64,000 bases of DNA, taken from positions 108,376,001 through 108,440,000 of the forward strand of contig OZ024742.1 of NCBI GenBank assembly GCA_964016885.1, read 5' to 3'. Each line of letters begins with the position of its first letter. Positions within the stretch are counted from its first letter, which is position 1. The position numbers and the translations under genes were made by a program. This DNA comes from Eledone cirrhosa. Lineage: Eukaryota. The notes under the pieces were generated by a model that did no database searches, was not told the DNA's origin, and was given only the letters and a program-made list of their open reading frames with translations. This document shows positions 25,255 through 58,202 of this stretch, piece after piece.

Positions 25255-25325
25255 CTCATCAGTGGCTTTCCAACCGTCGTAGGCATTTCGTCGCATTAAA
25301 GGCCATATACCTCAGGTTGGTGCGA
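25255..25325 (-). ncRNA. Non-circularly-permuted hammerhead, family 1
   Basis: Reverse complement: tcgca-ccaacc-tg-aggtaT-A|tggcctt-taa-tgcga-c-GAAA-tgcct-acgac-ggttgg-aaagcca-CTGATGA-g. Confidence 0.7.
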
Positions 25326-25513
25326 GCAACGGCTAAAAAAAGTCGTTGGGACACGTAAATAAAGGGGACGCTAGGGTAAACAGACAAAATGGTTTAAGCA
25401 GCAGAAAGTGATGTTGTTTCTTCTTCATCACTTTCTGCTGCTTAAACCATTTTGTCTGTTTACCCTAGCGTCCCCTTTATTTACGTGTCCCAACGACTTT
25501 TTTTAGCCGTTGC

Positions 25514-25584
25514 TCGCACCAACCTGAGGTATATGGCCTTTGATGCGACGAAATGCCTACGACTGTTGGAAGGCCACTGATGAG
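25514..25584 (+). ncRNA. Non-circularly-permuted hammerhead, family 1
   Basis: Same layout. Stem I tggcctt/aaggcca, core CTGATGA at 25577-25583, predicted cut after 25533. Confidence 0.7.
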
Positions 25585-25624
25585 GACAAACCTTTTCATA
25601 TATATATATATATATATATATATA

Positions 25625-26330
25625 TACGGAAAAAATGAAACGAAATTTCATTTCTCTCTCTTAGTACGGCTGTTACTTAAATATAAGTATGTATACGTAC
25701 ATACATTTATGTATACAGACGTACAGTAGCTTGTATATACATATGTTCGGTGAATGTTCGGTGAATCCATATATATATGTTCGGTGAATCCATACGTACA
25801 TATATATATGTGTGCATGTATGTATATATATATACATACTCCTGTACGTCTGTATACATATATGTATGTACGTATACATACTTATATTTAAGTAACAGCC
25901 GTACTAAGAGTGAGAAATGAAATTTCGTTTCATTTTTTGCGTTTATCGTTTTCGGTACCCCGGCCAATTAACTCTCTCGATATGCAAATTTGGCTGCTCA
26001 GCCGTTAATATGCATAAGGAAAATAAATACTTTCAGACGTTCAATCATCTGGCAGGAAAGTATACGTTGCTGACGATAGCCAATAAGCTTGAAACTAGTA
26101 CAGCGTTCCTTTGTCAGGGTTGAACAAATGAGCAACGACGGTTGCTAGACACTGTACGGCTTAATTCGGGATGTTTGTTTACAAACACACCGAGCATTAT
26201 AATAAATGTTCGGTGAATCCATACGTACATATATATATGTGTGCATGTATGTATATATATATATACATACTACTGTACGTATGTATACATATATGTATGT
26301 ACGTATACATACTTATATATATATATATAT
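25625..26330. mobile_element. (TA)n-associated rearranged repeat family with a canonical hammerhead; also at 27630-28270 and 40600-42490
   Basis: Recurrent blocks gaaacgaaatttcatttctc..ttagtacggctgttacttaaat and gttcggtgaatccatacg, present in both orientations. Confidence 0.7.
26064..26106 (+). ncRNA. Minimal type I hammerhead
   Basis: acgttg-CTGACGA-t-agc(caataa)gct-t-GAAA-ctagt-A|cagcgt, with palindromic stem III ACTAGT. Confidence 0.75.
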
Positions 26331-26486
26331 ATATATATATATATATTGGAAAATTAAAAAACAAAAACAATAGCAAGGAGTGCAGTTTACGAACAGTGTT
26401 TGGTATTAGGGTCACGCTTGAGAGTGGTGGGTGGTGGATATATATATACATATGAATGAAAAATAGAGCGAGAAACAGAACTATCC

Positions 26487-26558
26487 ATCATCAGTGATCT
26501 TCTGACTATCATCGGTATTTCTTCGCATTAAAGATGAGATACCTCAAAGTCAGTGCGA
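26487..26558 (-). ncRNA. Non-circularly-permuted hammerhead, family 1 (diverged)
   Basis: Extra helix is ctgact/agtcag, triplet AUC, and the 10.1-11.1 pair is T-A. Confidence 0.65.
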
Positions 26559-54212: not shown

Positions 54213-54380
54213 TTGTTTCTACTTTAGGCACAAGGCCAGCAATTACCCAGTGCATTACTGGTACTTTATTTTATCGACCCCGTAAGGATGAAAGGCAAAG
54301 TCAACCTCGGCGGGATTTGAACTCAGATCGTAAAGGGACGTAACTATGCTGGAAAGCATGGCGTCCGACCCTCTACCGAT
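54213..54380 (-). mobile_element. SINE family A
   Basis: Matches 49645-49830. Confidence 0.85.
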
Positions 54381-55609
54381 ATATTAACTAATAATAACTA
54401 AGACAGATGGGATTTGTAATATGTGAGAGTATTCCAGTTGATCCGATCAACGGAACAGCAGCTTGCTCGTGAAAGTAACGTGCATGAGGTTAAGCACTTC
54501 CCTAACATGTGCACACTTAACGTATTTCTCAGGGAGATTCAAGATTCAGCCGGTCATAGTGTGTAACAAAACTGTTTTTCTTTAAATTTCAGATACAGCT
54601 GAGTGGACTGGAGCAGCCTGAAATAAAGTATTGTGTTTTTTTTTATTACTGGATAAATGTATTTGTATTGTGTGCCTTAGGTAGTTGGGGCTTGTTGTTT
54701 TTATTTACTTTAATGTTGGCTAATGATATATAAAGGAAATGGAAACTATCTGTATCAAATTAAGAGTGGTATCCAGTATAACAACAGTCTTGTGGCTGAA
54801 ACTAGTAAAAGAATTTAAGAACAATTTTCTTATTGATCTTTTATATATGACGTAGGTATTTCGCTAGAGAGATAGATACTGACATTGAAGAATCTAATCA
54901 CAAACGCCAAGAATGAAAAGTAATTGTTTCCGGATTATAAGGAACATTTATCAGAGCTACCTGAAAATAAGTTAAATTTAATCTTCCTAAATTAAAATTG
55001 CCGTCATTTTCGACAGCCGTTTGTAAACACGTTGCCAACAGTTAAACCACCGGCAATTAAATTATCGACAGTCAAAATGGCGACAAGAGAAAATTCCTAC
55101 AAACGTCGTCAGTCAAGCTGTCGGCATTGAAAATCTCGACAGTTTTTATTTAGTAAAAATTTATTTTTAAATAATTCTTTTTCTAACTAAACCACTTTAT
55201 TAAATAGAAAGTTGCCAAAATTGTATATTTGATAAACAAAATAAAATCATAAGCGAGGATTATATGAAAAAATATACAAGATGTGTATGTATAACAAATA
55301 CACGTAAGTCTCACTACGAGATTATGATGTGTGAATCGAAGTATGTTAGTGATCTTTCTGAGTAAAACATGTTTAAAACTAAAGCTATATAGTGTAAACA
55401 AGGTGGTTTTAAAAAATAATTCGTTTTAAAATTAAAGCGAATTGTTACAACGAAACTTAAGAGGCATGACTTTAACCCTCTCAGTAATATATTTCTGATG
55501 AAATACACTGTCTGTGATTTTCAAGTCATTTTCAATATAATCAAGAATAACTTTCTCAAAAGTAAGCTGGGCACTGGAATATAAAAACAGTTTCTGACAT
55601 AGAATTATA

Positions 55610-55768
55610 ATTGTTTCTACTTTTGGCACAAGGCCAGAAATTACCCAGTGCATTACTGGTACTTTATTTTATCGACCCCGTAAGGATGAAAAGCAAAGTT
55701 AACCTCGGCGAGATTTGAACTCAGATCATGGCGTCCGACCCTCTATCGATACTGCCAATCCACCGCCT
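55610..55768 (-). mobile_element. SINE family A (internal deletion)
   Basis: Matches 49645-49830. Confidence 0.85.
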
Positions 55769-57051
55769 CACATAGAATTATATGGAAGGATTTTATATAT
55801 TTATAAACAGTTCAAAATAAACAGCTATGTGTTGTAGAACTAGGAGCAGTTTCAAGCAGATTGGTATCAAAGGAGTTAAGAAAAACACTGCCCTGAGACG
55901 TATAATTTGTGAGCACAATTCAATATCATTTATCCGTGTTACATCAACTTTTAAAAAATATGATTTAAGTGTTAGCGAGCTCTAATGTAGCTCCATAGCC
56001 TAGTGTTTAGGGTGTTGGACTCACGAACACATGCACGTTTACTGTCATGGAGTTGCCAAATATAACTATATATAAATTTGAGCGACTTCCGTCCGTCATA
56101 CAATGTGTGAATGTGTGTGTGTGTGTGTGTGTGTGTGTGTGTGTGTGTGTGTGTGTGTGTGTGTGTGTGTGTGTGTGTGTGAATGTATGTGTCTGTAAAA
56201 GGAAGAAAGGGGATGGTGAAAAAACTATATCAAAACACCGGCTGACGTTCCATTTGCTATGTTATGTGTGAGTGTATCTGTATGTTTGTGTAAATATATG
56301 TGTGCGTGTTTGTGTGAATGTATGTTTGTGAGTGTGTATTTTTGTAAGTGTGTCTGTATTTGCGCGTTTATATTTATATACTCATACATACAAATGTATG
56401 CATGCACACACATATACACATATGCGTCAGCGTGTTGAAAAAAATTCTAGTATTAAAAAAGTCAAGCTGATCTCAGTCTGTCTGTCCGTCGCAACATATA
56501 TAAAGAAGGAGGAAGGAAGGATGGAATCAAAAGGGGAGAGGACCGCTGTCACAACATATATGTACGAGGGAAGAAGGGGAGGAGTAAAAATCGTTGTTGT
56601 TAAGAGAGGGTGTGTGTGTGAAAGGGAGGGAGATCGTTTACGACGTCAGAATGAAGGTGATGACGACAGACTTTAAAAAACGATTGTGTGCACGTCTGTC
56701 AGCACTTTCATTTCTATGGTGTCACTCTACCTCCATCTATCTATCACACATACTTACGCTCTCACCGTATTTTTCTCTCAACGACTACTTTTCACGCCTC
56801 TTGTTTACCCCCTCCTTCTACATAGATGTGTGAAAAGCTGTTGTTAAGAAAGAAATACAGTGAAAGAATGTGTGCGTGAAAAATAGATAGATAGCTTAAC
56901 GCGTAATGCAACAATACGGTAACCTCATAATAACAAAGGTAGGAACATGATTCATGATTCACAAATAGCGACGGGGTTTTACTACTTCTAATAAGACCGA
57001 ACTTGTATAGATCAGAATATATATATATATATATATATATATATATATATA

Positions 57052-57747
57052 TGGTGGTAGAACACTGGAAGGTAATATCCATAGTGGTAAATCACTCAGT
57101 CCATGGGACGAGTTAGGTAGAAGTGGTTACACAACAGTTAGTTCACCATACCGAAAACAATTGTTTCACCTTAGCGGATCCTCAGCTCGTAATGGACATG
57201 GTTATACGGAACAGGAAGGACAACCGTACGAACGCGCATGCGCAGAAACCGCACTTCACACAGGCAATACTAAAAAGCGTGCGAAAGTCCGAAAAGTTTC
57301 TAGTTGATGAGAAAATTAGGATGTTGTGATTCAATCCGGAGCGTATGGCTTGGACTTAGTGATGGCTTTCCATTGAATGGAGTAGTCTATACTTGAGTCC
57401 TTGACGGACCATACGTGGCTCGCGAGTTTCGTGGATGAACGTCTGTCCGGGTACCTAAAGGTCGACTGGTGGTTCAGGAAGCGTTCCTTAAATCGGCCCT
57501 CCGCCATACCCACATAGGATTTGACCTCTTGTGGTTGATTTGGACGGTTGGAAGTGACCACAGCTTCATAAATTACAGCGGGTGTGTTGCATTGTTGTTG
57601 AAGGGGACAAGCTTCGGGCTTACGGCAAGAGCACCCTGGTGGGGTGTTGCTCTTAGGGCTGTTGGTGATGTGGGCCTTCATGTTCTTAGCGCAGTAGTAT
57701 CCTAGTTTTACTTTGTGTCGGTTAAAGATGGAGCGGTATCCACTTCT
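57052..57747 (-). mobile_element. Naiad-type PLE 3' fragment: GIY-YIG + pLTR, flanked by (TA)n
   Basis: CSCRKPEACPLQQQC..VIYEAVV..SYVGMAEGRFKERFLNH, with the hammerhead downstream. Confidence 0.85.
57152..57189 (-). ncRNA. Minimal type I hammerhead in PLE pLTR (truncated copy 46472-46504)
   Basis: Reverse complement: cgag-CTGAGGA-t-cc(gctaa)gg-t-GAA-acaattgt-T|ttcg. Confidence 0.7.
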
Positions 57748-58132
57748 ATATATATATATAGACCCCCAGTAGACAACTGATGAGGAAAACTCCTCCGCCC
57801 CCGTTCTAGCTTTCTTCGTATTCCCACTACATTTTAAGTTATATATATATATAAGTTTATCCCGGGTTCAATCGGGGGTAACCACAGTAAGTAAGGTACT
57901 CAATACATAGCAGAGTATAAATATTTAATATAGACATTTCTCCCGAATGAAACTGTTCTATCCGATAGAAGCCATTTCTATATTAAATATTTATACTCTA
58001 CTATGTATTGAGTACCTTACTTAGTGTGGTTTCCCCCGATTGAACCCAGGATAAACTTATATATATATATATATAACTTAAAATGTAGTGGGAATACGAA
58101 GAAAGCAAGACCGGGGAGGGGGGGGGGGGTTC

Positions 58133-58202
58133 TTCATCAGTGGTCTACTGGGGGTCTCGGATATTTCTACGCTTTAAAGACAATATATCTCGTACAGGGC
58201 GT
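58133..58202 (-). ncRNA. Non-circularly-permuted hammerhead, divergent family 1 member (partial mirror 57761-57784)
   Basis: Stem III is gatat/atatc and the pseudoknot helix is acgc/gcgt. Both are compensatory changes relative to other copies. Confidence 0.6.

Follow-up and report, generated by a model that had tools for sequence, protein, structure and literature searches.

Type-SGC hammerhead ribozymes, whose conserved blocks follow the order cleavage site, GAAA and CUGAnGA (S-G-C), were found in metatranscriptomes and cleave in vitro, also as monomers (Eckert et al. 2023, PMC10085705). The available part of that report places none of them in the genome of a known organism, apart from one weak GCS candidate. 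In its model CUGAnGA is directly followed by a strand of stem II, and its descriptor wants 2-6 pairs beyond G10.1-C11.1. Here we describe a hammerhead core in the same non-circular order that is repeated in the genome of Eledone cirrhosa, starting from a stretch of 64,000 nucleotides (nt), hereafter the window (assembly GCA_964016885.1, contig OZ024742.1, positions 108,376,001 to 108,440,000, forward strand).

Two groups of mobile elements are relevant to the surroundings of this ribozyme. Non-LTR retrozymes are defined by a type I hammerhead, and circular RNA has been shown for them; the accessible portions of the surveys used type I models only and mention no cephalopod (PMC7229834; bioRxiv 10.64898/2026.07.22.740005). 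Retrozymes have likewise been proposed, in the text available, as non-autonomous riders of Penelope-like elements (PLEs). For PLEs, and for Naiads especially, a tail, an inverted 5' copy and a preference for (TA)n are given as marks (PMC8557442). As far as the consulted part of Craig et al. 2021 goes, there is no canonical hammerhead in Naiads, eight of them are flagged 'HHR_half_core' (including Naiad_Ovul and Naiad_Esco), and cephalopod Naiads are described as remnants (PMC8557442).

The motif in the window is a hammerhead core in S-G-C order. Its strands follow each other as the 5' strand of stem III, the UH site, the 5' strand of stem I, TAA, a strand ending in GAAA, the 3' strand of stem III, the 3' strand of stem I and CUGAnGA. 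The classical types I, II and III were rejected because GAAA sits 5' of CUGAnGA and 3' of the cleavage site. A representative complete ribozyme, of subfamily S1, occupies 41741..41845 on the plus strand and is composed as follows (all plus strand).

41742-41745: 5' strand of helix E
41747-41768: hairpin F
41770-41774: 5' strand of helix D
41775-41780: 5' strand of helix B
41781-41783: kink-turn strand N-G-A
41784-41788: 5' strand of stem III
41789: predicted cleavage after this base (AUA)
41790-41796: 5' strand of stem I
41797-41799: TAA linker
41800-41804: 3' strand of helix D
41805: N11.1
41806-41809: GAAA
41809-41813: 3' strand of stem III
41814-41816: 3-nt bulge
41817-41818: GA
41820-41825: 3' strand of helix B
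41826-41832: 3' strand of stem I
41833-41839: CUGAUGA
41840: N10.1
41841-41844: 3' strand of helix E

The strand 5' of GAAA pairs with an upstream segment (helix D) and not with the strand 3' of CUGAnGA, and the upstream segment of D runs directly into the strand forming helix B. Stem II is split, with helix D as its probable distal part, for which the 5' end supplies one strand. The motif is closed by helix E (variants GTCC/GGAC, ATCC/GGAT and TTCC/GGAA) and hairpin F is located between E and D. One may picture the fold as an SGC fold that has been cut open within stem II and joined at its published ends. In the main clade, to which the representative belongs, the four-way junction made of the 10.1-11.1 pair, E, F and D leaves 0-1 bases unpaired. 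For this clade we also considered, and rejected, a pair between 11.1 and the base 5' of helix D, as the two pair in only 3 of the 16 subfamilies.

B and stem III are separated by an asymmetric loop with a 3-nt bulge and GA on one strand and N-GA opposite. The first search pattern left the GA of the bulge strand free, yet 22,810 of the 24,380 genome matches have it, and both GA are found in 15 of the 16 main-clade subfamily consensuses. Bulge positions 1 and 3 accept all four bases. By its letters this loop is a standard kink-turn; a kinked fold is predicted for it, and binding of L7Ae/15.5K is a speculative possibility. It shares the duplex, the 3-nt bulge and the tandem G.A and A.G with the box C/D kink-turn as far as this is set out in the text available (PMC4382518). 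Unlike a standard kink-turn it is placed inside a ribozyme scaffold, and it is absent or altered in a second clade. The same source states that 3b=C or 3n=G allows kink-turns to fold in ions alone, while box C/D kink-turns require protein. The 3b.3n position is C.U in 79, U.U in 59 and U.G in 11 of 172 aligned copies.

How does the motif compare with the described systems? With type-SGC/HRIMA-1 it shares the S-G-C block order with crossing stems, the full catalytic core, a linker of ~3 nt from stem I to the stem II strand, and a helix tying stems I and II. It differs in that the published stem II is continuous 3' of CUGAnGA and here is split; the published tying helix has a 3' partner, whereas here both partners come from the 5' side; and E and F are added here and B is joined to III by the kink-turn. 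The published type-SGC descriptor logic matches none of our 180 copies. Animal non-LTR retrozymes likewise encode nothing, are repeated in tandem with a unit length of a few hundred bases, have one hammerhead per unit and reach thousands of copies; their order is C-G-S and not S-G-C, and circular RNA has been demonstrated for them, while for the present units it would be a prediction. Naiads share the (TA)n targets, the 30-40 bp tails and the tandem and inverted insertions, according to the part of the source at hand (PMC8557442). They encode endonuclease (EN) and reverse transcriptase (RT), whereas these units encode nothing, and cephalopod Naiads are only remnants, whereas some subfamilies here are young. 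By analogy, the element may work like a type-SGC hammerhead and like a non-LTR retrozyme. Each comparison fails on one defining test (an uninterrupted block C for the first, a type I ribozyme for the second), and we therefore regard it as a variant and not as a plain member of either group. We found no report of this element in the open-licence PMC and bioRxiv literature, a coverage that leaves most subscription journals aside.

There are 14 complete copies within 25250-58227, on both strands, and a fifteenth, of the second clade, outside the range that the first-pass annotation covered. They are given here with the start of the CUGAnGA core, together with a truncated copy.

16979..17208 (+): second-clade copy, ribozyme 16979-17093, GUC triplet; tail to (TA)n at ~17208
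25250..25352 (-), core 25262: S1, forms an inverted pair with the 25487 copy; ~40-nt tail that runs to (TA)n at ~25200
25487..25589 (+), core 25577: S1, linker TGA in place of TAA; (TA)n end at ~25599
26482..26585 (-), core 26494: subfamily with helix B CTGACT/AGTCAG
29356..29458 (+), core 29446: stem I TGATTTT/AAAATCA; box C/D-like kink-turn with U.U at 3b.3n
38553..38655 (-), core 38565: helix B decayed; tail reaches (TA)n immediately upstream of a truncated Penelope-like RT/GIY-YIG frame
41506..41608 (-), core 41518: S2, inverted relative to the 41741 copy
41741..41845 (+), core 41833: S1, the representative
42527..43385 (-): S2 tandem pair (42527-42629, core 42539; 43283-43385, core 43295), period 756 nt
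46590..46994: inverted pair, 46590-46693 (-), core 46602, and 46891-46994 (+), core 46982; C.A mismatch at 10.1/11.1 in the plus copy
52384..53010: inverted pair, 52384-52486 (-), core 52396, and 52908-53010 (+), core 52998; helix B CTAGCC/GGCTAG, AUC triplet
57760..57850 (+): 5'-truncated copy (at 57777, plus strand) with only the 3' strands of B and stem I, core and tail; between (TA)n runs
58128..58227 (-), core 58140: ACGC/GCGT clade, A.A at 10.1/11.1; helix B decayed

All 13 scored window copies have the core, stem III at 5/5 and stem I at 5/6 or better. A structure descriptor matches 11 of the 15 copies, with no match in 200 dinucleotide shuffles or in the reversed window. An Rfam search of the window at gathering thresholds gave no match. 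Of the aligned copies, 120 of 172 pass every hammerhead criterion (core, UH site, stems I and III). In all 172, position 17 is A or C and never G, and position 7 varies between U and C. The absence of G at position 17 is the hammerhead cleavage rule.

The first-pass annotation had listed variants of stems I and III and of helices B and D, and all of them are present in the window. It also described a covariation between the base after CTGANGA (10.1) and the base before GAAA (11.1): this is G-C in 3, A-T in 4, T-A in 3 copies and G.T wobble in 2, and the two exceptions it named are as described (C.A at 46989, A.A at 58133). The TAA linker, which it called nearly invariant, is intact in 13 of 14 window copies (TGA in the copy with its core at 25577) and in at least 170 of 172 aligned copies. 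Helices E and F, the kink-turn, the link to type-SGC and the host element all lie beyond that reading.

Since the 14 window copies are not independent (inverted pairs, a tandem pair, local duplication), covariation was tested on subfamilies. From 180 copies taken from fetched loci, 8 failed anchoring (including the window copy with its core at 58140) and 1 chimeric copy was removed; 142 of the remaining 171 were grouped into 16 subfamilies of at least 2 copies each. Ancestors were reconstructed by parsimony on a FastTree tree of these subfamilies. The null model, which was custom-built, keeps the changes per column and weights branches by their load; the tree comes from the same columns as the test, and the p values below are uncorrected. 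Single branches carry 20 compensatory double changes, where the null gives a mean of 1.9 and a maximum of 9 in 2,000 simulations. By helix, observed and expected numbers are 7 versus 0.52 for B, 3 versus 0.26 for I, 3 versus 0.21 for F, 2 versus 0.09 for D, 2 versus 0.07 for E and 2 versus 0.28 for III (p=0.02). The single pair of stem II has 1 versus 0.34 (p=0.30); its two bases can pair canonically in 13 of 16 subfamilies (null 7.4, p=0.03), and the pair is of Watson-Crick type in 10 of 16 (p=0.09). Two or more independent double changes occur in 4 of 23 variable structure pairs and in 0 of 2,189 other column pairs.

Other samples gave a similar picture. With 133 distinct copies, paired cells exceed the null in all helices (p=0.002-0.008; II p=0.03), double changes in helix E are borderline (p=0.07) and the stem II pair has none. 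Among 22 real copies, 96.3% of cells pair, versus 28-48% with slid partners; 18 of 28 pairs are altered on both sides, G.U intermediates are tolerated, and the single 10.1-11.1 pair holds in 16 copies. The first-pass annotation had proposed that subfamily consensuses be derived and covariation be tested with phylogenetic correction, and the covariation survives it. Its view that there was selection on RNA structure across several subfamilies therefore holds; the selection on catalysis that it added may be inferred from the conservation of the core. It had taken four helices and the stem II pair to be supported. This stands clearly for I, B and D and more weakly for III; support for the stem II pair is weak, and in the second clade its bases are not paired with each other.

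The second clade has 1,242 pattern matches in the genome (control 23), with loci beyond the window that include L324, L330-L336 and L351-L380. The order is the same, and helices I, III, D, E and F are retained in other letters, with pairing at 94.4% in 12 copies: F is GGCCTTTT/AAAAGGCC, D is GGCGC/GCGCC, III is GATGT/ACATC and I is CTGTW/WACAG. The cleavage triplets are GUC or GUU. Here 11.1 belongs to D and 10.1 to E, in which 10.1 covaries as U-A and A-U, and therefore the single-pair stem II is optional. The link between B and III ranges from a plain 3-nt bulge up to a long loop, with no standard kink-turn. Since the kink-turn is replaced in this clade, it is clade-specific.

The ribozyme is housed in units of 470-806 nt that encode nothing and often stand head to tail in tandem, one ribozyme per unit, and up to nine matches follow each other in a row at ~750-nt spacing. 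No shared coding frame was seen beside the ribozyme in the units examined. The pattern GAAAT-N22-CTGAYGA has 24,380 matches in the 3.0-Gb genome, versus 321 for the backwards control, and a pattern of the S and G blocks (S+G) has 12,679, with 0 for its control. The subfamily with helix B CTGACT/AGTCAG accounts for 187 matches (control 0). At least one subfamily is young: 35 of 40 scored copies, from a selected top list, are identical over 101 bases and lie on many chromosomes. Contigs from four runs of one study contain the family plus tandem or circular joins; such contigs show neither ends nor strand. Elsewhere a fixed-spacing pattern occurs in at least 119 metagenome and 15 viral stretches, and 0 of these 134 pass the descriptor. 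A 5.2-kb ribozyme-bearing repeat at C1:111.94 Mb was considered as an autonomous carrier and rejected, its unit having no coding frame.

Insertion anatomy was scored on 55 copies, with loci taken in genome order. Eleven are internal to tandems; in 38 of the 44 terminal copies (TA)n is no more than 130 nt away from the core (control 28%). An inverted copy lies upstream in 14 of the 55, and 20 are in tandem. The insertion end points cluster 14-16 nt and 53-65 nt 3' of the core. A short motif between these two end points is common to the main-clade subfamilies and has a close variant in the second clade; the main-clade form adjoins an intact ribozyme in 53 matches, and the other 10 are also within these elements. 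In both clades it reads GCAAC or GTAAC, 2-5 nt, CAG, for example at 25200-25245 (-), 29480-29520 (+) and 17165-17205 (+). It is a candidate signal for RT or endonuclease. The insertion marks of PLEs found here are thus a microsatellite target, a tail of 30-40 bp, and tandem and inverted 5'-truncated copies.

These marks lead to the question of whether Naiads themselves carry the ribozyme. By eye, in the published consensus of Naiad_Obim and Naiad_Ovul (supplement of PMC8557442, the part seen), the last ~170 bases contain E, F, D, B, kink-turn, III and I, all pairing and with different letters. F has the same 8-nt TTATTTTA loop as in the Eledone units, D is GACAC/GTGTC, B is CGGAT/ATCCG and the kink-turn is U.U; III is ATGGT/ACCAT, the site is GUA, I is CTGCCC/GGGCAG, and the core lies shortly before the 3' end. 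As in the second clade, 11.1 of these Octopus Naiads pairs in D. Read in the same manner, the squid Naiad_Esco has the S-G-C order with stems I, III and B pairing. Two ostracod Naiads (Naiad-3_Dst and the preceding record) also have it: the site is GUC, stem I has 7 bp and adjoins CUGACGA, stem III has 10-11 pairs and is not the same in both, and the tying helix takes its partner from the 3' side, like the Eckert form; their S block is ~400 nt upstream of the G block. The motif was not seen by eye in the 3' ends of Naiad_Omin, Naiad_Adux and two clam Naiads, and the available nematode and spider 3' ends gave no convincing S-G-C fold.

The two clam Naiads (Naiad_Mmer and the preceding record), in the supplement portion at hand, have another conserved 3' motif, a hairpin with possible downstream loop pairing. 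It also holds TAAA or CAAA, GGTTTAAGC and two further hairpins. By eye it may resemble a pistol ribozyme.

Three old, decayed copies in the Eledone genome (L381, L387 and L388) are nearer to the Naiad_Ovul ribozyme than to either main clade, with no RT frame within 1.5 kb. A Naiad primer search of the genome gave 4 matches and a motif search 6; the Naiad-like ones are decayed, resemble the published Octopus consensus by eye, and no intact Naiad was found by these searches. The genome does have long open Penelope-type frames of 844-1,096 amino acids. In 30 GIY-YIG loci and ten long PLE frames, EN is at the C-terminal end where the frame is readable, and some of these loci carry ordinary short hammerheads; among the 3' ends listed for these loci and frames, none includes the SGC ribozyme. 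Near three of them SGC copies occur at a distance of 2-4.5 kb, apparently inserted independently. It is probably a different Penelope-like element, and not these decayed Naiads, that copies the young subfamilies at present.

We consider it likely that the units are retrozyme-like non-autonomous retroelements with a self-cutting, non-circularly permuted hammerhead taken from, or shared with, the 3' end of Naiads. The following scheme can be suggested. Stems I and III and the core would be arranged as in any hammerhead, in a presumed three-dimensional fold. D, B and stem I would meet at the TAA-bridged junction, replacing the contact between loop I and loop II. Helix D would act as stem II, as hammerhead biochemistry and the tested SGC ribozymes suggest. 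E and F would close the junction at the core, where the 10.1-11.1 pair is optional, and in the main clade B would turn back to stem III via the kink-turn. Judging from the insertion anatomy, transcription would run through tandem units, cleavage after NUH (AUA, AUC, GUC or GUU) would give unit-length RNA, and this RNA would probably be circularised; the tandem copies fit a circular template. A Penelope-like RT with its endonuclease would prime at (TA)n, ~15 or ~55-65 nt 3' of the core, and target-primed reverse transcription would copy through the intact ribozyme, so that tandem and inverted insertions result. As the ribozyme is intact in insertions that end 3' of it, the template would be uncut or re-ligated at that site.

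We think it likely that Naiads are not ribozyme-less, and that cephalopod and ostracod Naiads use non-circularly permuted hammerheads invisible to standard descriptors. A more speculative suggestion concerns the host: 15.5K could help folding by binding at the kink-turn. A tentative idea, with the chances against it, is that the host kink-turn protein 15.5K/Snu13 turns cleavage on. Unlikely as a whole is the combination of Naiad hammerheads, an octopod split-stem-II kink-turn form spawning ~25,000 riders, and 15.5K/Snu13-gated cleavage.

Several observations weigh against a self-cutting hammerhead derived from Naiads. The classical stem II is absent: immediately 3' of the core, 29 of 172 copies have no contiguous base pair, 131 have one and 12 have two, and 10.1-11.1 is unpaired in 28 of 28 second-clade copies (11.1 is C; 10.1 is A or T). 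Stem III has 0 single-branch double changes on the tree of 133 copies, yet 648 of 665 cells pair. The conservation of the core is partly imposed by the search patterns. For S1, the youngest subfamily, the nested fold of lowest energy is a competing structure. On the side of the donor, the Naiad structures were read by eye from the PMC8557442 supplement portion and not computed; this genome yielded just 6 remnants of Naiad RT, all decayed; no ribozyme was seen downstream of five Naiad remnants inspected at 9 kb; and the 3' ends of the ten long PLE frames examined are without an SGC ribozyme. In the S1 competitor (41741-41846, plus strand), the F arm pairs over a long helix with the 3' strand of B and stem I, and this helix wins in nested folding. 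One could imagine this helix as an off state that protects the template.

The alternative that survives best is that the fold was selected as a protein-binding or RT-recognition element, with the hammerhead core a slow or dead relic. Such a non-catalytic ribonucleoprotein element would account for a stem II that is down to one optional pair, the kink-turn would hint at its protein binding, and insertions that hold an uncut ribozyme suggest a template uncut at that site. Against this, the catalytic letters stay fixed while the flanking helices have all been exchanged among clade 1, clade 2 and the Naiad consensus, and position 17 shifts among A, C and U, never G, just as hammerhead cleavage demands. 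We regard this alternative as improbable.

Another suggestion is that neighbouring units, or two RNAs, assemble a topologically ordinary hammerhead. The frequency of tandem copies (20 of 55) would suit such a dimer, covariation is blind to the difference between cis and trans pairing, and cleavage by dimers of small or minimal PLE hammerheads has reportedly been published. The partners, on the other hand, all lie within ~105 nt with fixed short linkers, and the nested set E, F, B and III is predicted within one copy in most subfamilies. Monomeric type-SGC ribozymes cleave, according to the text available (PMC10085705). A dimer seems very improbable to us. Finally, covariation as an artefact of shared descent among few subfamilies, or of self-complementarity at the DNA level, could draw on the few independent events per helix (2-7), the tree built from the tested columns and the custom null, but it is hardly credible and largely refuted here by the repeated double changes confined to structure pairs (4 of 23, versus 0 of 2,189), by two further lineages (the second clade and Naiads) that keep the crossing helices with unrelated letters, and by the tolerated G.U intermediates.

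The window has other features that may be mentioned. Hammerhead cores of ordinary order (CUGAnGA, short hairpin, GAAA) occur in other repeats at 27429-27460 (both strands), 28623, 58285, 57185 (-) and 2635, and one of them lies at a GIY-YIG fragment's 3' end. Two ordinary hammerheads at 27400-27480 are joined head to head into a palindrome, and such palindromes recur in the genome. Three 5'-truncated Penelope-like RT/GIY-YIG fragments, at 36945-38542 (-), 57331-57740 (-) and 48478-48780 (-), are found at (TA)n sites that also hold ribozyme elements. Among the three, a GIY-YIG match was obtained for the first alone, and it is weak (E 0.002, short of the cut-off). Labels taken from reading translations suggest a near-complete LINE-like element at 5493-10832 (+), whose frames would be ORF1-like, endonuclease and RT; they also point to RT fragments at 4163-5011 and 991-1359 and to a frame resembling a transposase at 31506-33002 (-). 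Minisatellites are located at 22911-23133, 24191-24567 and 34139-34377, with periods of 69, 94 and 120 bp.

Whatever the mechanism of copying is, a hammerhead in non-circularly permuted RNA is placed here in an animal genome with ~25,000 copies; earlier reports, in the text available, are of environmental sequence only, and no case backed by covariation had turned up in a known organism's genome (PMC10085705). The split stem II would break the published assumption that the core and its stem II strand stay inseparable. The motif as a whole would offer an answer to why Naiads seem hammerhead-less and to what the 'half cores' are, and it implies that retrozyme surveys based on type I models miss whole families. 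The copies also form a natural series of variants, with and without the 10.1-11.1 pair and with a kink-turn, a 3-nt bulge or a long loop between B and III, which suits the testing of what a hammerhead core needs and of gating by host proteins. If Naiad hammerheads and gating by 15.5K/Snu13 were both true, we would be dealing with a hammerhead that a protein gates in nature, and with the first case in which covariation supports a non-circular permutation of an RNA in a cellular genome.

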